64,000 bases of DNA, from NCBI GenBank assembly GCA_965645245.1, contig OZ287070.1, forward strand, positions 2,542,001-2,606,000, read 5' to 3'. The notes beneath the pieces are model-generated. The model was not told the origin of the DNA and did not search any database. It worked only from the letters and a program-made list of their open reading frames with translations. Positions 31,096 to 55,518 of this stretch are shown piece by piece. The DNA comes from Massalongia carnosa. Taxonomy: Eukaryota. Made by a program: the position numbers and the translations under genes. How positions within the stretch are numbered: the first letter of the stretch is position 1; every line of letters starts with the position of its first letter.

Positions 31096-31367
31096 TGTTG
31101 AAATAAGTATATGACTATGACTATATGACTATGATAAAAATGGTATGTATGACCGTGATGTTAAGGATGAAGAGTGCTGTTCAGCAGTCTTTGTCCTATA
31201 ACTGGTCACGCTCTGCTAAGCGAGGGAATAAGATTATCCGAGCCGATCTAATCTAATCTCTAGGCTAAGCCTAATACGGCATCTACGGTTTCCGTAAGGT
31301 GCTCTGTTCATCTTAGGTAGTCGTAGGTGCTATGTTTACTGTACTGGTAGGAGTTGGATATTTAACA
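31096..31367. mobile_element. Solo LTR, 272 bp
   Basis: TGTT...AACA ends with perfect 5-bp TSD AGTCC. Confidence 0.85.
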
Positions 31368-31928
31368 AGTCCTTTCGCTATCGATTTTCACGAGTATCGA
31401 CAGACTTGAGGCGAGGCTATGAGGAGACTGATAAGAAGATGCTTGCTGATATGTCGATAGTGGAGCGATTCTCTCGCAGTTGTCACATGCATGATGCGGA
31501 TCACATCCGATTGTTGCCTGATCTAAATGATTGCCGACAACTGTGAGGCGACATTGCATGATAGTGATAAAGCACAGTAGCGCTCGTCGGTCGATCCGCG
31601 TGTCCGTTTGCAGTTTGTTCACAAAGTACTCGCTAACGTAGAGCACTGAACGGCCACCTTGCTCCTGACGACCCAATCGACCGCTTTGCTGCAGTAGTTC
31701 GAGGAAATTGTAACAGCCATCCGGAATAATCATTAAGGTGAGTCTCTCGTAGTCCATTCCTTGTCTCAATGCCGTCGTGACGATCATGATCGCCCCTTCT
31801 TCGTCTGCGAATCTTCTTTCATTTTCCGTCTTCGCATAATCGGACATTCGGTCATGATAGACGACAAAATCTAGATTCATCAAATCCTCCGCTGTTTGAA
31901 TCATAGCATTCACTTCACGAACGTATAT

Positions 31929-34715
31929 TGAAGAAGGGTAGTCGTGCGTGCTAATGGAAGGTGGTGGTACGTGATGATAGATGGCGAACTAAGCAGTGAA
32001 CACACACACACAAACGTCTGAATGGACCTACGACTGCATAGACATGAAAAGAACCCGACGACTGAACGACTGAACGACTAGTTGATGCACGAAATGAACG
32101 TGTGTCGATGACTACGTGACACGACGATGATGATGACAGCGTAGGTGATAGAAGATGATGTCCGGAGATGATGAAGAAAACGCCAGCAAAAAACCCGTTT
32201 TATCCCCACACAGGCCTGCCATGTCACCTGACCATAGATGACACATGTCGCCCCACCACATAGCCTCACACCCCAAAGATGCCGTCCCCTGGCATCTGTC
32301 AACACTTCGCCAGCTCACCTCTCCTGACCAATCAGATCTCGTCTCTGAGCCCTCGCCTCGCCTCTAGTCTGTCCGCCTCACTAGTCTGCCCTGCGGGCCA
32401 ATCACAGCTCACATGATCACTTCACATGTGAAAAACACGACTCACATCGACCCCTATCCGCTGCTGAATAGCCTCCATCATCGTCACTATTGCCTGCCAG
32501 CCCTCGGGGGTGGACACGAACTGAATAAATCGTTGTTGACTGACTGATGGGTCTGTTGACGGTGATCTGGACGACTGCATGGATTTAGCCTGAGGCGGAA
32601 TGAACGCACCGCTCGCCCGATAGGCCTCAAATGTTGACGACGTGACCGTTTCAGGTAATGGCAAGGCATCAACCGGTGGTGCAGCTGGTAGGGCTGATGA
32701 TAACGACGGAGGTGCTGACGGTGCTGGTGCTGACGCTGACTGATTAGATAGGCTGGGCCTGTCAAATGGAGTGGAACAATATGAAGCCGGAGGTGCAGGT
32801 AGTGTCCAGCGCGTACGTTTTGCACGTCTAGCCCGTGCGTGCCTAGCTCGGTCTGACTGCCATGGCCCTGACCTACATGAAGGTGGAAACGACCTCACTC
32901 GATTGGCTGACACGGTGGCACTAGCTGAAGATGAACTTGACCGTGCGAGAATTTCTTTCACTTTCGTCAGCAATTCGGTCAAAATCTCTCGACCCACGAC
33001 AGTGTGCAGCAGTATTTTCGTGTTATCAGCACCTGCTAGTTGACATAGGGCGTCCGAAAGGGGAAGACTGGACAGTCGACACATAGGAACTATCCAGGTG
33101 GAGGCCTGCAAATATAAAAATCCTAGTGCCTGACGGGAGATAGATGACTGAATGAGAGGCAAAGTAGACAGATATTCTTCGATATTTGACGAAACGAAGG
33201 CCACTGAATGAACGAATGATGACGCTGAAGGGGACGGTGATACTGAACGCAATGGTGATAATGAACGGGAAGGTGCTATATAGTCGTCAATTTCGACGTA
33301 GCTGACGTCCGGAAGGCGTCCGGCCATAGCTAGCTCCACATTGACCTCAGAGGCTGAATGAAATGATGTTGAATTTGGCCTTTCCGGCCCCTTTTTTGAT
33401 GACTCAATGACTGACTTAGTGTCAGCAGACTCGATAGCGGTGATGACAGGTGCCGAAGACACGGCAGAACGAAAAGCGGTGACGGGTGACGGTGGTGCGG
33501 TGGACGGTGCAGACATGAACGGTGCAGACGGTGCAGATGGTGCAGACATAGTGACTGGTGGTGACACGGCGACTGTTGGACAAATAGACAGCGATTCTGG
33601 ACAGTTTGTATGGATCACATGGGCCTTTTGTGCCCTATATTTCGCAAACAATTCCTCCATGCTCATGTATGACCTTGTCGATGCAACCGAGGCAGTTGAT
33701 GATGACACTGACGGTGCTGATGAACTGACAGACGATGCCCTCGACACGGAGATGGACCGGCTATTTTGCTGTCGCTTTCTCGGCAGATGACGTCGCTGTT
33801 GCTTGCTCATAGGTGCGCTGGGTGAAGAAGAAGAAGCAGATAAAAATGAAGATGTAGATGGAGGTGTACTAGTGCTAGAGGTTGGTGCACTAGTGGTGGA
33901 CGTGGAAGTGGACGACTCGAACGACTCGGACGACTCGGAGGCAGAAACGGATGCTCTTTTGGTAGGCCTACCACGTTTCGCTCGATTATGGTGTCGCTGT
34001 CGTTGACGTGCTCGTTTTGATGGTAGTGGAGTAGGTGAGGTCGGTCTAGTACTCTCGGACACGGTCGCATTGGCCCAAATGCAGAAGGTAAAGCACGAGG
34101 ACATGGCCATCAGTGCAGTGAATAGAACGACTAGCCATTCCCAGAAATGGACGTCTGGAACGCATGCAGTCGGTGAAACGGTAACGGTAGCGGTAGCGGA
34201 GGTCGAAAAGGTGAAAAAGCTGATGGGGGCCATAATGCTCAGTTTGGTGTGGGAGGACTCGATCGTGCACGGTCGGAGGTGGAGTAATCAGAGGTGCAAA
34301 TTCAGGAGGTTTTTCGACGTTTGATGCTCAGTTCAACTGCTCAATTGCACCAGTACTATCATATATCGCACCGTGGTCGCCAATGGAGAAGGGTAGTCGT
34401 GCGTGCTAATGGAAGGTGGTGGTACGTGATGATAGATGGCGAACTAAGCAGTGAACACACACACACAAACGTCTGAATGGACCTACGACTGCATAGACAT
34501 GAAAAGAACCCGACGACTGAACGACTGAACGACTAGTTGATGCACGAAATGAACGTGTGTCGATGACTACGTGACACGACGATGATGATGACAGCGTAGG
34601 TGATAGAAGATGATGTCCGGAGATGATGAAGAAAACGCCAGCAAAAAACCCGTTTTATCCCCGCACAGGCCTGCCATGTCACCTGACCATAGATGACACA
34701 TGTCGCCCCATCACA
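31929..34715 (-). mobile_element. Non-autonomous LTR retroelement (2787 bp) carrying a single orphan ORF
   Basis: 332-bp direct repeats at 31929-32260 and 34384-34715 (TG..CA; about 3 differences seen by eye). 4-bp TSD ATAT. PBS TGGCGACCACGGTG lies 1 nt inside the 5' LTR. Confidence 0.88.
32422..34233 (-). CDS. Orphan 603-aa Ser/Pro/Ala-rich protein with an N-terminal transmembrane helix
   Basis: Uninterrupted ORF in the element's sense orientation. Hydrophobic FWEWLVVLFTALMAMSSCFTFCIW, followed by Arg-rich patches. No recognisable gag/pol motifs. Confidence 0.65.
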   Translation of the reverse strand: MAPISFFTFSTSATATVTVSPTACVPDVHFWEWLVVLFTALMAMSSCFTFCIWANATVSESTRPTSPTPLPSKRARQRQRHHNRAKRGRPTKRASVSASESSESFESSTSTSTTSAPTSSTSTPPSTSSFLSASSSSPSAPMSKQQRRHLPRKRQQNSRSISVSRASSVSSSAPSVSSSTASVASTRSYMSMEELFAKYRAQKAHVIHTNCPESLSICPTVAVSPPVTMSAPSAPSAPFMSAPSTAPPSPVTAFRSAVSSAPVITAIESADTKSVIESSKKGPERPNSTSFHSASEVNVELAMAGRLPDVSYVEIDDYIAPSRSLSPLRSVSPSPSASSFVHSVAFVSSNIEEYLSTLPLIQSSISRQALGFLYLQASTWIVPMCRLSSLPLSDALCQLAGADNTKILLHTVVGREILTELLTKVKEILARSSSSSASATVSANRVRSFPPSCRSGPWQSDRARHARARRAKRTRWTLPAPPASYCSTPFDRPSLSNQSASAPAPSAPPSLSSALPAAPPVDALPLPETVTSSTFEAYRASGAFIPPQAKSMQSSRSPSTDPSVSQQRFIQFVSTPEGWQAIVTMMEAIQQRIGVDVSRVFHM

Positions 34716-35042
34716 ATATGATGATTTTTTCTTTCTTTCAACGTTGTTCCTTCAGCAACGCTCGCATTGAATGTAAGTATTCTTCGATCCGGAACACGAC
34801 GTGATAACTGATATCGATACGGGCTGTCCATGTGCGATATTTCTTGTCGGCCGACTTCAGACCCATGATATCCCGCAGACAGCTCTCGTCGACGAGAGGC
34901 AGGCTTCCTGTCAGAAAGATCTTTTGTACGGAGGATTAGACACGGCTCCCAGAACCACAACATATGATTGAGGCTCATCCGCCAGTCCTGATCAACCAAG
35001 TACATTTGAGCTTCGTCAAAAATAGTCTGACTAGTCGATTGG

Positions 35043-35114: not shown

Positions 35115-37148
35115 ATTGGATTCCGTAAGGCCATGGAGGAAGGTGACAAAGTCTGGATTCAGACTGCTTTCCGGAGTCACCTGTGACGGTGTGAAGGGAT
35201 AAACTGGGTGGTGGCGAACGATAGAAGGATGAAACAAACAAACAAATGACCGAATCAACAGAGCCTCACTGCATCGATGAATGAATCGTCATGCCCATCA
35301 ATGGCCGACTAGCTGTACGAATGAATGTGTCTATAATAGCTGTATGTGTTGATAGCAGTACGAATAAATGATCCGAAGATGGATATCCCGAAAGATAAGA
35401 AGGAAAAGTGCGAGAAAAAAGACTCATATAACCGGAACGCCAAGACGCCAGCACCCGACCAACTGATTAATCACCTGACTTATCACCTGACCTGCCACCG
35501 ACCCGGTGGAGCTCCACTCCACCCCTTTACAACGGTTCAACAGGATATGGAATTGACTATCTACTGGGAGGCTATGCACTAGAAAATATCGAAGATGCAG
35601 AAAGGAAACAAGCAAATGGTGCCCTCTCTATGAGTCTATATAGATAATCGCTTGGCCCGATCCAGCTGCTTGTGTCTTCATCAATACTCGTATTCACCCC
35701 CATTAAGCACCCCACCAAAATCCGAAAAACCTTTACCCTTCAGCTTCGCATGCCACCAAAATTGCTAGCAATCGCAAGCCAACTGCTGAAGCCGGTTCGG
35801 AATAATCTGAAGATTTATTGACCTAAAATATAACCTAATGGCTGCATCAAAAGAACTGGAATTGAGCTTTGTATATACGTTAAAACCTAATCTTTTCACT
35901 TCCTCTTCTTTTCCACCCCACTTTCCAGCTGTCTGGCAGCAGCAGACTGTCCTAATAACTTTCCCTTAACTAATTGATGTCCTCTAATCAACGAGGTCTT
36001 CCGGTTTGAGCTTCGAAAAAGCGATACTGTTGATCAAGAAGGCGTTGCTTGTGTTGGATCGGAGGGAGTTTTTTCAGGATGGGTCCTGAAGTCCCATCAA
36101 CATCATTTGGCAGATAAACTCAGGGCAAATGAACATGTGGAAGGACTGTTAATACGTACAGAGACTTTTTATTGGCTAGGAGGAGGATCATGCGTACGAG
36201 GCAAGTTTCGAGTTCTTTAATCAAGCCTTTGCGACGGCTTTATTGTCCTACCACTTCGACTGATGCGCATTTCTTTCATTCTATTCGCCTCCGGCTCAAT
36301 CATGAAAGTCTTTTTTGGCGATGAATTTCCTCTCGATCGCTTCTTGATAGGACTGAGCGAGAGAAGTATGATTGAATCCGAAGTCGGAGGAAGCATCGGA
36401 GGCCTTTGAAGAGCTTTCTTGATGGGACTGCGTTGTTTTGACTCTATGAATAAATCGGGACTGAGTTTGTTGAAAGATTTCACCAAAAGACTGAACTCTT
36501 TGGTCATTTGTTTATCAATCTTTTCCTTTTCTTTGCTAGCTAGTATTTGCTCTCGTTCCTCGAGAACCTCCGAATTCATGATTCTAGCAGTACCATAATG
36601 TCCCTTCGCTCGATTTGCTCTCTCGTGTTTACGACGAGCAGCTACAAGAAGTTCTTTGTTTGTAATCCTGAGAAGATGACTGCTTGCCAACGCGGATTTG
36701 CAGGCCTTTCCAAGCTTTTCGAGAATCAATTGATTTGAATCATTGTCAGTCAATTGCTCCATCAAATTATTGACTTGATCAGCATTTGCTAGAGTAAACA
36801 TTTGAATTCGTGACTGTCATTGTCGAGGGCGTAGAAGGATGAGGTGGACTAGGAAGTTTTTGAAGAACTATAGCAAGATTGAATGGAAACAACCCACTTT
36901 TGGACCAGGCATGTTGAATATTTTGAGTGGATAAAGCTCTGTTTCGAACCTTTTGATAAAGAATCAGAAAGTCTGATTTATCAATTGAATAAACAACTCC
37001 TAGTCTAGTATACTTCTCCAGTTCCACCCGGTAGGCCGTAGACAATGGATGAAAAACACCAACTTCTAAAGGCTGAAGCATGTCCGTTGAATAAGAAGGA
37101 AGACATAAAAGAATGATGTCTTTTTCCTTACAAAACTGAATCGCTTCT

Positions 37149-43680: not shown

Positions 43681-45333
43681 GTAAAAAATGAAAAGAGAAA
43701 GGAAGAATAGTGCTTTGAAAAGCAGTTCATAATGAATTAATTGAGTTGATAATGCAGATAGAAGAGGGAGAAATGTAAAAAATTTTGATGTACCGGAGTC
43801 CACGGATTTAATGCGGGTGCTTACTAACTAGCGTGTTGCAAATGGGGGTGCGTTGCAAATGGGGGTGAATACGAGTAAGTGAACAGTTTGGTCAAACAGT
43901 CTTTCTGCCCTTTGTCCCTTTCATCCATTTGTGTTTGCTTTAGAAGGTCGTTCCGATGCGTCCCTTTCAGTCCTTTCAGACCTCCGTTGATTGCCCCTAT
44001 GATTGCTTGATGGTGACCGGCCACCTACGGTTTCCGTGGATGGAAATAAGGTTTAGCGTCCCGGAGCTTTCGGTTGAACCGTGACATCACCAGCACCACG
44101 GTGGCGCAGGTTGACAAGCCTTTCCACGTCATGGCGGTAACACCGAGCTTTGCGCATCGGGCCTGCAATTGATTCTGCAGAACGACGGTCGGCACCACGC
44201 CGATTGTGACTTGATCCATTTGAGCATGAGCAGCCAACATGATGATTTCGATCTTTCCTGATCCCATGGACAGCACCACAATATGGTTCGCGCTGTTGCT
44301 CTGAATGTCATGAAGCACGCGATCCTGATGTGGCCGAAACGTCCCGCCCGGATGAATGAGTTGCAAAGCGGCCAAGAATGTAGATCTCGACGATGCCACC
44401 GAAAGCGATCGGAGGTCCGAGGTTGTGCACTCGCTCAGAGCGCGTTTGATCACTGACGAAGTGACCGCCGAAGGCGAAACCGCTCGACTACGACGAGCAC
44501 CCATCGACTTGAGGATTGACCTTAGTCGCTCTATCCCATAGTTATCCTTAATTCCACTGTAGGTATGGTGGAATATAATTGTTAGAGACCAGATTTACTT
44601 AAGCGGCGTACATGTCATCTGAAGGGGTACGATAGAATAACATTCAAGGGTAGGGTGCCATTTCGCGTCCTGAGCCGATTTACTTGATTCGAGCGGCCAG
44701 TAATAACCCGGATTCGAAATATTAATATGTGTCAAAAGGAAAAAAATTCGATCTTATTGTGATTTTATAAAAATCGCGGCGCAAAGAGTGTTTGAAGTGG
44801 TTTTTGTTACAGCGGTACTCAGTACTGCTAGCCAGCGGGCGCAATACATGAGCGCCTAAGTAGGTACGGTGACGTACCAGCTTGCTTAAAAGGATGTCCA
44901 TTGAGACATGCGAGCAAGCTCGTCTATACAGCTAATCTAGACTAGTCTCAATCTGGACCTGCTCCTATCATGGAATCAAAGAGTTACCCGGTTAAGCCGG
45001 ACTTATCACGGAGATAAGCAAGTGTTAAACTACGAAAGCATGCTATGTTATATTACCGTGACAATCGATTCACATCATCAAGTCACATCTATTAATTAGT
45101 TCCTTCCTCATTATAAGGCTGCAAGTTAGTGTATGTACCCCGTAGACAAGGGCTGATCCACAAGGCTAGTTATTATGCTTGAGAGTTACTCGTATCCTAA
45201 GTGCGCTTAGCCACTTTGGGGGGATGCGGCTGCTGTTGATTCGTGCGCCTGGTACAGAGCGATACAAGGGCACGGATATATAGAGGTGGCTACTTAAGAC
45301 ACTTTTGATCTTTTGATCTTTCAGGTCGCTACA

Positions 45334-48300
45334 ATGATGTGCAGCAGAGATACAGTCAAGGTCTCAGGTCTTAATATCTGGGCCAGTGGCGAGCAAGATG
45401 GTAATGGACCCGAAGTAGAGTAAGACAAACGATTCTTCATGAAGCCGCAGCATCACTGACAGGCGTTTAAGTGTTATTGCAGTTCAAGGTCTCGGTGCTC
45501 ATCCATATTACACATGGATTTCGAGGCCAAATTCTGCGAAGCAACCGAAGTCCAGAGAAGCTCATCGATTCAAGTTCTTAAAAAGCCGTGCTCAGACAGA
45601 CAAACTTTCCGATGTCGCTCAAACGACATCCGACACTGCTGAGGTGATGTGGCTTCGAGACTTATTGCCGAACTTCGCTTCAAATACTCGAGTTGCGACA
45701 TACAGTTACGAGTCAGACTGGCGAAAAGCAGACATCAAAACAAGTCTCCGCAGATGTGGGGAGCAGTTTCTTAATGTTCTTTATCAGAATCGGTTAAGTG
45801 AAAAGGTCAGTAAAGCGATCGCGGGAATTCTTCATTTTTTCTTATTAATAGTCTATATAGCAACGTCGTCGACCCTTAATTTTTATTGGACATAGCCTTG
45901 GAGGTTTAATTATTAAACAGGTCGGTCTGGCTTGACACTAAATTTTTTAAATTACTAAGGTCCTCTTTATAGGCTCTAGTATTAGCCAATCATAGCGAAT
46001 ATTTTAGAGATATTAAACTGTCCACGACTGGGATCATCTTTCTTGGAACACCACATCAAGGAAGTGACGCTGCAGTATATGGTACATGGCTTGCTCAAGC
46101 AGTAGGACATGATAAGACATTATTAGAGTCTTTGAAAACAAACAGCCCTACTCTTCATGATGTAGCGCGGGACTTCGAAACAAGTTACATCAAAGTTGAT
46201 GTCGTTTGTTTTTATGAAGACAAGAAAGGATCATACGGACCTTGGCAGACTCAGGTCTGATAATCTCTGTTTTCACGCTCAACTGGGATGAAAGCTTATG
46301 ACTCATAGCTCGTTGATTATCAATCAGCTTCTTTGCTTAGCAAGAGGATCATATATCTCAATACAAATCACTCGGGGTTGAATAAATTCAATGGCCCTGA
46401 AGATGAAAATTTTCTCTTGATAAAGCCAGAAGTTCAAAGAATGATTCAGAATGCGTCTCAAAGAGTCGAGGAACAGTATTACTGTATGATTTATATTCCT
46501 TACTCTAGATTTCATGTTGTTCAAGGCTTCTCTGACTTTTTGTCAGCACCTGTTGAAATCAGCGAAAAAAAATCGTTCCACGTTGAATTCAGTCTTCAGG
46601 GCATTCCTGTGATGAATTATTTTGTAGCCCGAGACGCAGAGATGACTCAATTGACTCAGAATTTACTTCCCACCACCGTAGACTCAATGCGTCGTAAAGT
46701 ATTCATTCTTCACGGACTTGGCGGGATTGGAAAGACTCAGCTCTCCGTTGAATTCGCTCGAAAATATCACAAGAACTACACCGCGGTCTTCTGGGTCGAC
46801 GGTTCGACTAAGGAGAGACTGAGGCGAAGCATTGCTGATCTTGCCGGTCGACTACCACAGCATCAGATATCTGAAAATAGCAGAAATTATTCACAAGAGA
46901 AAAGCATGAAGAACAACGCAGATGTGAATGAAATCGTTAAGGATGTGCTTAATTGGTTATCACAGTCATCAAATAATCAATGGCTGCTAATTTTTGACAA
47001 TGTGGATCGAGAGTTTTCCGTATCAATTGAAGATCCGAAAGCCTTCAATGTTCAAGATTTTTTCCCAACGGCAGATCAAGGATCTATCCTTATCACTTCT
47101 CGACTAGCCAGTTTATATCATTTAGGTACGGATATGAAAGTGAAACCGGTCAATCAATTGCAAGGAGAAAGTATTCTCGAGAAGTGTCTCGGGCAATCCA
47201 TGCAAGGTCAGTGCAATAAGAAGCATACTTGCTCGGGCATTATCTGACATTTGAGACTTATTAGATTTATTCAAGATTGTCAATCTGCTTCAAGGCCTTC
47301 CTCTGGCGATTAATCAAGCTGGTTCATACATGCGGAAAACAGGCACAAACGTGTCTGAGTACATAAAATCATATAATCACACATGGGAAAAATTAATGAA
47401 CAAGCAGCATCGCTCCACATTTCAAGCAGATACAGATCGCAGTGTTTTGACAACATGGATATTATCTTTCAATCACCTTCAGGCGCAAAGTGAGGACGCA
47501 GCGAAAATTTTAATGCTGTGGGCGTTTCTCGACAATCAAGATCTCTGGTACGAGCTTTTTGCGTCTGCGCTAGATCTTGATATTGTTGACAAGATGCCTG
47601 ATTGGTATATCAGATGTGCAGGTGATGAACTTGAATTCAAAGACTGCATAGGACTACTTTTGGAATATTCCTTTATCGATGCAAGAATTGAATCAAATTC
47701 CTTCTTTATGCATCCTGTGCTTCATCAATGGTCATTTCACGTATTTGAGAAAGAAAAGACTGATATGAGCTGGCTTGCCATGATTATTGTCGCATCCGCT
47801 GTACCTTTAGAGACTGTGCCTAACTATTCTTTCATATCGAGACGTCTTCTGCCACATTGCGACCGTGTTTTCCCATTACTGAAGCATCGCATACAAGAAA
47901 GCTTTGTTAACGAGATAGATCCTTTATCTCTTAGCTACGCATGTCATGAATTAGGTCGTCTGTACTCCGATCAAGGCAAAATGAAAGAAGCCGAAGAAAT
48001 GTATCTGCGGGCATTGAAAGGCTACGAAAAGGCCTGGGGCGTCGAGCACACGTCGACGCTCAACACCGTTAACAACTTAGGAAATCTGTACTTCAATCAA
48101 GGCAAAATGAAAGAAGCCGAAGAAATGTATCTGCGGGCATTGACAGGCTACGAAAAGGCCTGGGGCGTCGAGCACAAGTCGACGCTCGACACTGTCAACA
48201 ATTTAGGAATTCTGTACTCCAATCAAGGCAAAACGAAAGAAGCTGAAGAAATGTATCTGCGGGCACTGACAGGCAAGGAAAAGGCCTGGGGCGTCGAGCA

Positions 48301-49081
48301 CAGGTCGACGCTCGAAACTGTCAACAATTTAGGAACCCTGTACTCCAATCAAGGCAAAATGAAAGAAGCTGAAGAAATGTATCTGCGGGCACTGACAGGC
48401 AAGGAAAAGGCCTGGGGCGTCGAGCACTGGTCGACGCTCCGCACCGTCAACAATTTAGGAGCTCTGTACTCCGATCAAGGCAAAATGAAAGAAGCCGAAG
48501 AAATGTATCTGCGGGCATTGACAGGCTACGAAAAGGCCTGGGGCGTCGAGCACTGGTCGACGCTCAGCACCGTCTACAATTTAGGACTTCTGTACTCCAA
48601 TCAAGGAAAATGGAAAGAAGCCGAAGAAATGTATCTGCGGGCACTGATAGGCTTCGAAAAGGCCTGGAGCGTCGAGCACAGGTCGACGCTCGACACCGTT
48701 AACAACTTAGGAAATCTGTACTTCAATCAAGGCAAAATGAAAGAAGCCGAAGAAATGTACCTGCGGGCATTGATAGGCAAAGAAAAGGTCTGGGGACCTG
48801 AGCATAAATCGTCGTTAGACACAAGATATAATTTAGGAGTTTTGTACAAGGAAAGATCTATGTTTGAGGATGCGACACATCACTTCAAGCTTGTCGTACA
48901 AGGCTATACAAGTACACTAGAATCCGAACACTGGGAGACAGTTGATGCCCAGAATGAACTGAAAAGCTGCGACTCTGAACAGTTAAACAGCTTAACTGAT
49001 GCATCTGACACGGATCATGCCTCAAACTATACCGCAGAAAACGATCGACTAACTGAAACTTTGAGATGGAAATCATATTGA
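45334..49081 (+). CDS. Fungal NLR-like STAND protein: alpha/beta-hydrolase (SesB-like), NB-ARC, TPR; multi-exon
   Basis: VIAVQGLG, MWLRDLLP, FIGHSLGG, GIIFLGTPHQGS, HSGLNKF; P-loop GLGGIGKTQL, WLLIFDNVD, ILITSR, GLPLAINQAG, MHPVLH; then TPRs. Confidence 0.92.
47951..48832 (+). repeat. Seven highly conserved 126-bp tandem repeats encoding 42-aa TPR units
   Basis: CAAGGCAAAATGAAAGAAGCCGAAGAAATGTATCTGCGGGCA recurs with 126-bp period. Confidence 0.95.
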
Positions 49082-51330: not shown

Positions 51331-52857
51331 GGAGAATGCCGTAAAACTCCACATTTTATCTAGGGTTCGGGTTTTCTCGCTCTGGCCTATATGCTTCAGT
51401 TGAGAACCCATCATGGACTTCTACGTCGCTATTTATTCGTCAACCACAGACTGCGATTGCCACCTCTGTTATCAAGCCAGAATATGAAACGCCCATAAGT
51501 CTCATAACAGTTCTCCTCTCTCAGATGCACGTTGACGGTGAGTCTGTTTAATCGTACATTCACAAAGTACCCTCTAACAAGCACATAGAGCAGTTTCGTG
51601 ACATTCCGCTTCCACTACCAGCCATTTCCCAATAGCCCAGTATGTCTGGTGGATGACACTAGCGGCTTGATTTGCGGACGTTCATGAAGTAGACGGGTAT
51701 TGCGTTCATTCCCAGCCAAGCAGACGGCAAATCAGGAGCCCAAGTATGAAGATGAGTGCAGCTATCAAGCAGTTACAGGAACCGATTGTGGATTGGAAGG
51801 GGTCATATAAAAGGACCCGGGGAGATTGAGTGACGTGCCTGTCGCCTATTCGGTACAAGCAAGTTTTTGGATAACTCGGCTTGTATTCACCTTGTCTGTG
51901 AGGTGATTAAATTGCGTTGATAGGAAGGTTGCGGAAGGAGGTCGGGTCTTTGACATGCAAGGGGTAGACCTGGATGTTGATGTCCAACGGAGGTTGAGAG
52001 CTGTCTCTCAGCAGAGTAGGTCTAGCTGAGCCAGAAAAGGGAGTTGTTGTTGCTGTGAAATGCGCCCAGATGACGGGCTGGCCAGAGAGGCCGGAGCTGA
52101 AGCAAAGATGATTTGCATTGTATTTGATTGAGGCGTAAATAATATTAGATACGGGATTCGCCACAACCGATTGCAGAGATAAAGAAAGATACACGCGAAA
52201 CGGAACCTACAGCTCCTGCAAGCTCCTGCAACTGTTATTCCAGCGACTACATATCCGTGCCACCCACATCGCTCGGTTCGCCTCGCTTATTTGAATACAT
52301 CTGCCACAATCGTAGAATGGTCTAGCAGAATGTCTAGATCCGGAACGAGGTAGTTCACAGTATACTTACATTGACCAAATCGAGAAAATGTGGCTTTGTC
52401 AACGTCTTCTAGTCTTTGAGTATACTACTTGAACTGCTGCTTGGTCCGTAGATCATAGCATTGCCGCGCTGATTGCTAACGTTACGAATCTTGAAGTTAG
52501 ATGCTGAGTTACAATTGGCCTAGCTTTCTCTTAGGTGGTCTGAAAATCTAGACAAATCGGTAGTTCGATAGATTCCTCTTGTGGTTGGTCAAGACGGTTA
52601 TATCATCCTCTCTCCTACGACTAACACTCCTAGTAAATATCAAAAGGTAGTATAGTGGATAGAAGATAGAACACTTGCTTTGTTCTATATGGATAGACAT
52701 GTACGGTATCCTACTATTAGACTAGCGATACGTCTAGCCATTAGCGTGCGCCATACTCGTGCGGTAGAAGGTGAGTGCGGCTGAAATGAAGTAGCCTGAT
52801 TTGTACATTCTAACACCTTGAGGGTTGAGCCGTATGAAGCCTAAGTCAGACTATATA

Positions 52858-55328
52858 ATCGTCGGCTCGTTTAGCTCCGTTGGATCCGACTAAAACAACT
52901 TTTCTTAGCAACCACCTTGATTTATTGACTCTAAATTTCGAAAATTGATACGTATAGCCCTTGCAGCATTTATTCGGTAAAATAACTTCTCAATTACCTC
53001 ATTTGCAGCACTGTATCGCCTCCGTCGCATTTCCAGCATTTAACCTTCGTCGCATTTTCAGTCTGCCAAACCAACCATGGATCGTTCCAACGCCGCCCCC
53101 CTCACCCCCCTCACCTCATTGGAAGAGGCGAAGCAATTTTTGGAGGAACATCCATCCGAAAGCAAGACCACGGCAGCGATAATTTTTGGCCTCAATGTCA
53201 AAACATTGACGGCCTCTATTCGACGGAATTCTAGAACGAAAAAGGGAGTACAAAATCGAATGATGAAGGATCATGAAATAAGAGCTCTTGATCAATTTAT
53301 TCGATCTTTATTGGCACATGGAATTCCGCCTACACATCAGATTGTTTTCAATGCAATTGGAAGTCTGAAGAGAGCTCATGATCCTGCCTTCGTAGGTCCA
53401 TCTCAAAGATGGCTTCGGAGTTGGTGGAAAAGTAGCGATCTTCATAAAATAAAGACAAAACCATTGCCAATGACACGTTTTGAAGCAGCCCACGAATCAG
53501 GTTTGATGCAATGGTTTGAAAATTATAAGCTTGTTTTAGAAGAATTGGAAATTCGTCATCGACGAAACATTCTGAATTTCGATGAGGCGGGGTTTCGTAT
53601 CGGCTGCATGAAGGGGCAGGAAGTTCTGCTTCCCCTAGATATCAGACAATTTTACGCTGTTAGCCCGGAAAACCGCAGATCTGCGACCATCATGGAGACA
53701 ATAAATGCCGCCGGCGATTTCCCCCCCCCTCCCATGATTATCATACAAGGGCATGACATCATGGCTACCTGGTTTTCAGAAGATTTGCCGCAGGGCACAC
53801 GTATCGTACCTTCGAACAGTGGTTTTACATCTGATAAGATAGGGATTGAATATCTGCAGCATCTCATCAAGCACACAGATTGCGGACCTGATGCGGATTG
53901 GAAATTGCTGCTGATGGATAATCATGGCAGTCATATAACTCCTGAATTTGTCAAATTGGCTAATGAGAATCGGATTCGTCCCTTTCCATTTATTCCGCAT
54001 TTGACTCATTGCATGCAACCATTGGATGTGGGCGTATTTCAGCCTTATAAATATTGGCATGACAAAGCTATTTCGGAATTTGTTGCGAAGTCATTTATTG
54101 ATTATTCTTTGACTCAATTTCTGCAAGATCTCGGCAAAATCAGAAATCAGACATTCAAGCCTTCTACAATTCGACATGCTTTTGAAAAGTCGGGAATGTG
54201 GCCTATTAATCCGAAGCAATGCGTCAAACTTTTGAAAGTTTTCAATCCTGACTCTGATCTAGTCGAGACTGATCCTAAGTTGCCACTGCTACCTCGTCGA
54301 ACTCATCCTCAGGAAATAACTGATATAGAGTATGATTTTCAGGAATGGGGTCCTAAAATTCAGAAATTCATGCAATGGAGCGATCCAGTCCGTGCTGAGG
54401 AATTTAATTCCTTCGTCACCAACACTAGCGAAGTCGTTTCGAAATCGATTCTCAAAGAGGCAGAACTGACAATGTGGCAAAAGACAAGAATGCAACAGTT
54501 GCATGGTCGGAAACTATCTCGCAAGCGATTGAAGCCCGAAACAGGAAAATTGGGACTTACAAAGGAAGATGCGGATGAAGCTATAGCCATAAAAACTCGA
54601 CAGGAAGAGGAGGCTGAGAAGAAACGGGCGGACAATAACTTCATGAGATTATGGCGAGGTGAAAGGGACGACATTCATGTCAAGGGGGTTGCTGCTCGAA
54701 AGGCAGAAAGAGATCGCGTCAAAAGACTGAAAGAAATGCAGAAAGGATTCGGTGCCATTCCAGCTGAGATGTATGAGGCAATTCCTGACCCCGAGGCATT
54801 ATGGAAGGCGACGAATCATGTGTGGATAGCTGAGGAGGCGAAAAAGGAAGCCAGGAAGAATCCACGTGCCAGTGCCAATGCCAACTATGAAGAAGACGTC
54901 ACGTTTATTGTAGATGAGGCTGGGACTAGAAATGAAGATATTCCGGACATTCCAGAAGAAGAAGCATGGCTGCGTGATGATTTCGTATCTTTCGATCTAG
55001 GTTTCGAACCGGGAGATGCTTGGGATGGGGAAGATGCGGGGTATGCGGGGTATGCGGAAGATCAGAATGATCAGAATAGTCAGGGGGATCAGGGGGGTCA
55101 GGGGGGTCAGGGGGATGATTTTAATCACGGCTTTGATGATGACGATGCCTTTCGAGCTTTTCATGAAATTTAGAATCAATAAATCAAGGTGGTTGCTGAG
55201 AAAAGTTGAAAAAGTTGAAAATTTTCTGATTTTGGCAGGATGCATCGCTTGCCGGGATGCTTCGCTTTCCCCGACTAAAAGGCGAACGCCTTTTAGTCGG
55301 ATCCAACGGAGCTAAACGAGCCGACGAT
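52858..55328 (+). mobile_element. Intact pogo/Fot1-family (Tc1/mariner superfamily) DNA transposon, 2471 bp
   Basis: Perfect 38-bp TIRs ATCGTCGGCTCGTTTAGCTCCGTTGGATCCGACTAAAA, TA TSD, and an uninterrupted transposase. Confidence 0.95.
53077..55173 (+). CDS. DDE_1 (pogo-like) transposase, 698 aa
   Basis: NFDEAGF, LLLMDNHGSH, HLTHCMQPLDVGVFQPYK; acidic C-terminal tail. Confidence 0.95.
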   Translation: MDRSNAAPLTPLTSLEEAKQFLEEHPSESKTTAAIIFGLNVKTLTASIRRNSRTKKGVQNRMMKDHEIRALDQFIRSLLAHGIPPTHQIVFNAIGSLKRAHDPAFVGPSQRWLRSWWKSSDLHKIKTKPLPMTRFEAAHESGLMQWFENYKLVLEELEIRHRRNILNFDEAGFRIGCMKGQEVLLPLDIRQFYAVSPENRRSATIMETINAAGDFPPPPMIIIQGHDIMATWFSEDLPQGTRIVPSNSGFTSDKIGIEYLQHLIKHTDCGPDADWKLLLMDNHGSHITPEFVKLANENRIRPFPFIPHLTHCMQPLDVGVFQPYKYWHDKAISEFVAKSFIDYSLTQFLQDLGKIRNQTFKPSTIRHAFEKSGMWPINPKQCVKLLKVFNPDSDLVETDPKLPLLPRRTHPQEITDIEYDFQEWGPKIQKFMQWSDPVRAEEFNSFVTNTSEVVSKSILKEAELTMWQKTRMQQLHGRKLSRKRLKPETGKLGLTKEDADEAIAIKTRQEEEAEKKRADNNFMRLWRGERDDIHVKGVAARKAERDRVKRLKEMQKGFGAIPAEMYEAIPDPEALWKATNHVWIAEEAKKEARKNPRASANANYEEDVTFIVDEAGTRNEDIPDIPEEEAWLRDDFVSFDLGFEPGDAWDGEDAGYAGYAEDQNDQNSQGDQGGQGGQGDDFNHGFDDDDAFRAFHEI

Positions 55329-55518
55329 TAGCATTGTTGCGGATTTACTGAGACTGTTCCACCCTTGAAAGATGGATGTTCGTTCCTGTGTAAGTACGTC
55401 TGCGCCCATTTCGTTCCTTTGGCCCCCACGTGGCGCTCTACACATCCGGATTGCCACAACGCTCATATTGGCATACCCTTCGCACTTGAGCACGAATCTA
55501 ACTCCGCACATCTTGTAG

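Follow-up and report, generated by a model that had tools for sequence, protein, structure and literature searches.

Why would a retroelement without gag or pol keep a long open gene for a protein of its own? This question is raised by a locus of the fungus Massalongia carnosa, namely an element at positions 31929-34715 (minus strand, 2787 bp in all) of a 64,000-nucleotide stretch of contig OZ287070.1, which was analysed at its full length and is called the window below. A first-pass annotation, made from the letters alone, had described it as a long terminal repeat (LTR) retroelement with no gag or pol that carries one intact orphan membrane protein. Our analysis indicates that the element belongs to a family (A) that very probably depends on an autonomous Ty3/gypsy family of the same genome (B), and that its cargo protein, which recurs in a second gag/pol-less family (C), has been under weak purifying selection, as judged by codon comparison. 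The protein quite possibly serves the RNA that encodes it.

Structure of the element and its insertion site

The two LTRs (5′ LTR, 34384-34715; 3′ LTR, 31929-32260; minus strand) are both 332 bp long with TG..CA ends and differ at 3 of 332 positions. The copies of a 4-bp target site duplication (TSD), ATAT, flank them at 31925-31928 and 34716-34719, both features being as first described. The 3′ end of the 5′ LTR is like that of family B. One base past this LTR starts the primer binding site (PBS; 34365-34382, minus strand), whose 18 nt are complementary to the 3′ end of the host tRNA-Arg(TCG) gene, including the CCA added post-transcriptionally; the comparison initially made with the tRNA-Asn-primed yeast element Ty4 was therefore mistaken. 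Beside the 3′ LTR lies a G-rich tract (32261-32277, minus strand), presumed to be the plus-strand primer site, and upstream of it a 19-nt hairpin (GATGCC..GGCATC; 32278-32296, minus strand), which is identical in B. Both had been correctly recognized at the outset. The tract is an impure, not all-purine run, and its counterpart in B is similar.

The interior is filled by a single sense open reading frame (ORF; 32422-34233, minus strand), as had been reported. Its 603 codons cover 1812 of the 2123 interior bases, which makes the interior 85% coding, and the stop-free frame runs to 621 codons, where 300 shuffled sequences gave 128 on average and 220 at most. The product consists for 50% of S, T, P and A and is homologous to the 470-aa ORF product of family C. 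The ORF begins about 130 nt past the PBS, where gag normally sits. No coding sequence for reverse transcriptase (RT), RNase H (RH) or integrase (IN) was found in the element by Pfam or by comparison with the helper families.

The element splits a decayed helicase remnant (31362-31928, minus strand; Helicase_C, E 4e-9), which resumes beyond 34720 with stops. Excising the element in silico restores the reading frame ...KIIIYVREVNAM, so this part of the early description stands. Nevertheless, a stop lies 5 codons ahead of IIIYVREV, further stops are found upstream, and the nearest paralogue of the remnant likewise carries stops; thus the interrupted helicase is not an intact host gene. Contigs from three sequencing runs span the element, a kind of coverage that cannot show expression.

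Copies and age of the family

When the genome was searched with the element, 40 of the 103 scored candidates yielded 56 matches, among them full elements on many contigs and solo LTRs. With the C-terminal 92 residues, 23 genome matches were obtained, 19 of which came from 18 family A copies and 4 from another family; family A comprises at least 18 copies. Fourteen were compared, the window copy and 13 others. The ORF is uninterrupted in four (603-654 aa), whose LTR pairs are 98.2-100% identical, and the other ten present stops, frameshifts or deletions, with LTR pairs 86-97% identical (8 measurable). On these identities, the state of the ORF follows the pattern expected if copies decay after insertion. 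The window ORF is 162 bp shorter than those of the three other intact copies (647-654 aa). Judged by its copies and LTRs, A is a young multi-copy family of LTR retrotransposons lacking gag and pol. The view of a distinct family likely moved in trans, already put forward on the window copy, agrees with this copy number and with the signals and target preference of B described below.

Elements sharing only the first 575 bp were considered as a helper and discarded, as they are truncated A copies, three of them with the same flank. Two matches on contig C20, one near 969 kb and one near 979 kb, are fragments of A-like elements in a decayed state and not a third cargo family. Single-copy mutations in the A alignment show an excess of C>T changes followed by A (69) and of G>A changes preceded by T (50), dinucleotide content not being normalised, which may reflect a mild bias resembling repeat-induced point mutation (RIP) or methylation.

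Helper families and target preference

The 14-nt core of the PBS occurs 70 times in the genome and 0 times in the reversed control. Tracing these sites led to the autonomous Ty3/gypsy families B, D and E and to two more families without gag and pol. One is C, with its ORF of 470 aa. The other, F, has no long ORF in an interior of about 1.6 kb, and the one copy seen (L085; G000:C9 near 877-879 kb) presents a D-type PBS junction, hairpins and LTR ends. The same 18-nt PBS is found in A, B, C and D. In B and D, protease (PR) is encoded in ORF1 and RT-RH-IN in ORF2, giving the domain order PR-RT-RH-IN; copies of B with open gag-PR and RT-RH-IN frames exist, and no chromodomain was matched by Pfam on the pol of either family. 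A and B, but not D, have in common a 41-nt stretch over the LTR end and PBS (93%) and the identical 19-nt hairpin before the 3′ LTR. C, F and D carry an alternative hairpin, the stem of which differs from the A/B version by two paired changes, and their LTR termini are D-like. Family B, with the same PBS, LTR ends and hairpin, is thus the sort of autonomous partner that the first-pass annotation had anticipated.

Target duplications measure 4 bp in A, B, C and D. Their centres were counted only for insertions whose two flanks agree, copies with disagreeing flanks being left out. TA-centred duplications make up 14/19 in A and 8/11 in B, against 0/15 in C and 0/11 in D, whereas CG-centred ones make up 14/15 in C and 7/11 in D, against 1/19 in A and 1/11 in B. 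By Fisher's test, neither A and B (p = 1) nor C and D (p = 1) differ, and cross-pairs give 1e-3 to 1e-5 (A vs D, 9e-5; C vs B, 1e-4). Since integrase sets target choice, this pairing of centres means that A was likely integrated by the B enzyme, and C by the D enzyme. Shared PBS, LTR ends and polypurine tract (PPT) are also the criteria used for wheat partner pairs (PMC11302176, PMC9744471). Taken together, the terminal signals and target sites suggest that family A is likely copied and integrated by B and, leaving aside any role of the protein, we are highly confident that A is a non-autonomous gypsy element dependent on B.

A solo LTR of family C (35190-35531, minus strand; 92% identical to a full C LTR) stands 470 bp from the element, within the same decayed helicase region. 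It has its own 4-bp CG-centred duplication, contrary to the initial statement that the other LTR insertions here all have 5-bp duplications. Family E (L097), an autonomous gypsy family with the same tRNA-Arg PBS and 171-bp LTRs without TG..CA ends, was rejected as helper because its LTR ends differ and no other sequence is shared.

Other observations concern the helpers themselves. Between the D subfamilies L096 and L110, dS (synonymous divergence) is 0.06 in pol but 1.24 in the gag ORF, a contrast that suggests a gag swap by recombination. Both helpers also have a third ORF after pol (L096:7716-8546 in D; the 3′ region in L072 for B). These ORFs are homologous to each other (30% over 60 aa, E 8e-8) and have no Pfam match. 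The D version has only 2 close matches in the protein database, and its dN/dS (ratio of nonsynonymous to synonymous rates) between two D copies rests on 9 changes and is uninformative.

Homology and selection of the cargo gene

The A and C proteins align with a BLASTP E of 8e-36, while no blastn alignment is obtained between A and C DNA. The conserved parts are the N-terminal hydrophobic segment, preceded by a C-x-P-D-V-H-x-W-x-W motif, a helical block, the motifs VSANRV and SGPWQS-x-RAR-x-AR, and a C-terminal helix pair with STPEGW; the segment and the short motifs persist across a dS of about 1.4. Over 418 codons, the Nei-Gojobori estimate of dN/dS for A versus C is 0.41. As a control for the protein-guided alignment, neutral divergence was simulated to a similar level in 6 runs. 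Observed identities by codon position are 0.54/0.63/0.41 with 0 stops, whereas all 6 simulations gave flat identities (0.52-0.58) and 16-25 stops. Also, third codon positions account for most of the differences in the C-terminal block, even when the DNA is aligned without regard to frame (28/41, 25/40, 15/40), and a young and an old C copy show a dN/dS of 0.51 (p = 4e-4). By these codon comparisons the cargo protein is under purifying selection between A and C.

Within A, 29 of the 41 indels in the ORF have a length divisible by 3, as against 6 of 37 outside it (p = 1e-6), and this holds for 13/13 of the ORF indels shared among copies, two compensating pairs being set aside. Pairwise dN/dS against the window copy ranges from 0.52 to 1.16 (13 comparisons), with the helical block alone giving a lower value (0.29, on 12 transitions). 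Overall, the constraint is genuine on a long time scale yet weak. This is what one would expect of a protein that is disordered for the most part and has short functional islands, or of one whose function is fading in A.

A frame that is kept while substitutions are near neutral, in an ORF that fills most of the interior and has a nucleic-acid motif as one of its conserved blocks, would also be expected if the open frame mattered over the protein. Long translation would then shield the RNA from nonsense-mediated decay or hold it on ribosomes for packaging, and residue conservation would be largely a relic. The third-position differences in the C-terminal block, the ratio between C copies and the survival of the hydrophobic segment and short motifs at such a dS speak against it, and we judge this explanation somewhat unlikely.

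Predicted topology and structure of the cargo protein

The sole hydrophobic segment of the A protein, residues 34-52 (34078-34134, minus strand; Kyte-Doolittle score over 19 residues, KD19, of 2.2), is predicted to form a single membrane helix, in agreement with the N-terminal one noticed at first. No basic residue lies before it and 12 K/R come after it, a layout that suggests a signal-anchor with the N-terminus outside. In the C protein another hydrophobic stretch, less pronounced than the first, lies near residue 205. In A, about 550 low-complexity residues come after the segment. Retroviral env has a large ectodomain followed by a C-terminal membrane anchor. The predicted topology of the cargo protein is the reverse of this, hence not env-like, and lends no support to the env-like cargo once considered for this element.

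A predicted helical block (residues 341-433; 32935-33213, minus strand) is kept between A and C. Modelled alone, it reaches a predicted local distance difference test score (pLDDT) of 67 and a predicted template modelling score (pTM) of 0.43. The fold search recommended for the helical islands found no match for this model at E<=0.001 with Foldseek in PDB or BFVD; in a VIA search, which also bears on a capsid fold, the best Z was 6.2 (root mean square deviation 2.7, 70 aligned), a value within background. In the AlphaFold2 model of the full-length protein, residues 561-590 are the best-predicted part (pLDDT 65-75). A C-terminal helix-kink-helix with STPEGW is predicted at residues 564-593 (32455-32544, minus strand).

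In Pfam, the A protein gave only DUF6535 at E 0.014 on the hydrophobic segment, below the cut-off, and the C protein gave no match. In a sequence library limited in fungal repeats, 0 matches were found for the A protein among 7987 candidates scored, and 1 match, 100% identical, for the C protein. A C-half profile run against 1.84 billion representatives retrieved 3 matches, all of them pieces of A or C copies. The ESM Atlas gave no usable match for either protein, and the best E in a PDB sequence search was 0.64. Protein libraries hold limited fungal repeat sequence, and negatives there do not show absence elsewhere.

The gag position of the ORF, its Arg-rich patches and helical blocks, and the wheat non-autonomous elements known to have a divergent gag (PMC11302176, PMC9744471) would suit a gag-derived or gag-replacing structural protein that has diverged past detection and co-assembles with the helper Gag, as proposed for wheat Quinta and Sabrina. 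We regard this as improbable. No gag is matched by Pfam, a six-frame hidden Markov model (HMM) search against the gag ORFs of B, D and E finds nothing besides the hairpin, hhalign of the cargo protein against helper gag or ORF3 gives a probability of at most 0.2%, and the roughly 90 ordered residues estimated from structure models would be too few for a two-domain capsid. Also, tblastn, six-frame HMM search and hhalign detected no similarity to helper gag, pol, antisense frames or ORF3, except for one 12-residue motif. By none of these tests is the ORF a gag derivative, the antisense of pol or a deletion product of the helpers.

Own-genome searches with either protein end retrieved no non-repeat host paralogue, all 23 and 27 matches being A- or C-type copies or fragments. 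This argues against a protein acting in trans on host or helper, be it by countering silencing, by restricting copy number or as the product of a host membrane-protein gene captured and spread as cargo. Copies without the ORF would share such a benefit, so that selection would maintain the gene less easily. A membrane anchor with a disordered, motif-studded tail is typical of regulatory proteins, and two separate families retain the protein; on balance, an action in trans appears unlikely.

A shared 23-nt inverted repeat

The 12-residue motif common to the cargo protein and helper D pol is an inverted repeat at the nucleic-acid level, 23 nt long within the ORF (32744-32766, minus strand), where it reads PFDRPSLSN. 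The cargo matches the beginning of helper D pol at PFNRPGLLNQ, but descent from pol was rejected as the explanation: third positions are conserved (10/12), and the sequence forms an inverted repeat that turns up again in non-coding and copia settings. The repeat is also present, in nearly identical form, in family C, in helper D pol, in the non-coding family F, in copia-like leaders and in another repeat family. A degenerate pattern found 93 sites in the genome and 0 in the control (e.g. L236:2961, L252, L242:2997, L096:4211). Of twenty further sites examined, 4 belong to D-type pol, 7 to copia-like leaders that precede gag, and 9 to a distinct repeat family in which long ORFs are lacking. Two of 6 sequences carry a change on each side of one stem pair, but another pair is disrupted in two A copies. 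The repeat could plausibly form an RNA hairpin, a dyad DNA site being also possible, and the shared repeat possibly represents a packaging or dimerisation hairpin or a host-factor site. The copy inside A is D-like, and its pattern has no match inside four full B copies. This hints at a helper switch rather than co-divergence of A/B and C/D, the motif being too widespread to prove it.

The repeat family at L261:642-2494, with related L262-L264, is about 1.9 kb long, has no long ORFs and begins with 23-bp tandem repeats. It also has the shared inverted repeat, and several GGTTCAAGTCC motifs in it are presumably B-box-like.

A possible role in cis

Among the roles weighed for the protein, we tentatively favour, at a little less than an even chance, a selected, predicted membrane-anchored accessory protein of the B-mobilised family A that helps its own RNA to reach or enter helper particles, acting in cis. 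The B enzymes would copy and integrate A in trans. The ORF would be translated into a protein with a single N-terminal signal-anchor, its small N-terminus lying outside and its long and largely disordered tail in the cytoplasm, and co-translational membrane insertion would tether the encoding RNA at the endoplasmic reticulum (ER), which is the most speculative step. The conserved Arg-rich motif and the helical blocks would then contact RNA or the helper Gag. As a signal-anchor would hold its mRNA at the membrane during chain insertion, the benefit would be in cis by default, and a benefit confined to the encoding RNA would explain why selection keeps the gene in a parasite. In Ty1, co-translational targeting of the RNA to the ER nucleates assembly sites (PMC3945221), and the likeness is one of mode of action only. 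Unlike our element, Ty1 is autonomous and the targeted protein is Gag itself (PMC3945221).

Several points weigh against this cis-acting role. Ty1 is a copia element, and its Gag shows no cis-preference (PMC3945221). The ORF1 products of B and D have no strong hydrophobic segment, and assembly of the helpers at the ER is a supposition. The basic patch past the membrane helix is absent from C (1 K/R), and the full-length AlphaFold2 model, with a mean pLDDT of 34, is mostly a disordered chain with helical islands. Selection had been proposed as a check on the gene, and the ratio between A and C supports it; within A, the ratio is near 1 (0.85-0.91 at sites shared by at least 2 copies, 0.90-1.03 for singletons), 10 of 14 ORFs are broken, and 3 stop-creating sites are shared among copies. 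The pattern within A thus goes part of the way towards one of the outcomes that the first-pass annotation had named as refuting its view. Helper D controls give 0.13 (gag) and 0.20 (pol). A lower value between A and C, 0.35 over 191 codons, comes from conserved blocks picked by eye, and repetitive tracts of 3 and 9 nt can favour in-frame indels by slippage. Finally, the non-coding family F (one copy seen) uses D-type signals, and so the protein is not required for such parasitism.

A bolder version of the cis-acting role would make A and C satellite retroelements with a dedicated membrane-tethered adaptor, which parks the parasite RNA at the assembly site of the helper and wins packaging, as a portable module kept across two helper integrases. 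We consider this version unlikely.

Comparison with known systems

Gag-less coding parasites and partner changes are already known from wheat. In RLG_Sabrina variants NA2-NA8 (partner RLG_Wilma), the gag-protease is replaced by unrelated coding sequence, some of it without homologue, and as in our case only the PBS and short terminal motifs are common with the helper; helper switching is known in Angela elements (PMC9744471). These Sabrina variants are plant elements of 6.6-7.6 kb with short proteins that differ between variants (PMC9744471), whereas A and C are found in a fungus, measure 2.4-3.0 kb and encode one predicted membrane-anchored protein of 470-654 aa, homologous over two families, with two helpers and two target preferences. 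RLG_Quinta and its partner RLG_Cereba were likewise recognised by LTR ends, PBS and PPT, and the Quinta ORF is intact with a domain of unknown function, but it is clearly gag-homologous (PMC11302176). The cargo ORF differs in this from Quinta and from the other gag-only semi-autonomous elements, Sabrina_SA and WHAM, no gag homology being recognisable by Pfam, six-frame HMM or hhalign.

Terminal-repeat retrotransposons in miniature (TRIMs), including the fungal Helenus, retain LTRs, PBS and PPT and are mobilised in trans, but they are shorter than 1 kb and encode no mobilisation proteins, and fungal Helenus has 5-bp TSDs and copia helpers (PMC10886601). The present element, with its 2787 bp, is coding and has 4-bp duplications and gypsy helpers. 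Large retrotransposon derivatives (LARDs) have a long non-coding interior of several kb, unlike the 2123-bp, 85% coding interior described here. Mammalian apparent LTR retrotransposons (MaLRs) have a single internal ORF. They resemble our element by description, as a large non-autonomous LTR group with mere traces of retroviral homology, and they are vertebrate and related to ERV-L (PMC6466679). A survey of fungal LTR elements mentions autonomous/non-autonomous pairs, and the word "transmembrane" is absent from its accessible text (PMC3248453). In a word-matching search limited to open-access article text and not extending to repeat databases, no fungal case came up of a non-autonomous LTR element with such a shared orphan membrane protein.

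Other features of the window

The window is otherwise crowded with other transposon ORFs, and from its ORFs the host appears to be an ascomycete. An N-terminal fragment of a DEAD-type helicase at 44025-44504 (E 6e-5) is possibly the other half of the remnant at 31362-31928, parted from it by nested insertions. A 583-aa ORF at 47330-49081 contains seven 126-bp repeats, which we take to be tetratricopeptide repeat (TPR)-like, and comes after an NB-ARC-like ORF at 46441-47247; the pair looks like a fungal NOD-like receptor (NLR)-like gene. A 698-aa DDE transposase-like ORF at 52856-55330 is flanked by inverted repeats of 40-44 bp.

Significance for parasite-helper pairs

Non-autonomous LTR elements are generally regarded as encoding either nothing or gag alone. 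A selected gene in a parasite of this kind would imply a benefit for the parasite's own RNA, and this bears on how parasite RNAs compete for packaging in the particles of another element. If the protein is dispensable, A would be an ordinary non-autonomous gypsy family with an unusual interior; if it is a dedicated adaptor, it would be a retrotransposon counterpart to the helper-exploiting proteins of phage satellites. In the genome of M. carnosa, A with B and C with D form two probable parasite-helper pairs that have homologous cargo but differ in their terminal signals and targets, and these families, like the non-coding parasite F, have young copies. With F as a natural control, helper specificity and the function of the cargo could be tested by swaps.

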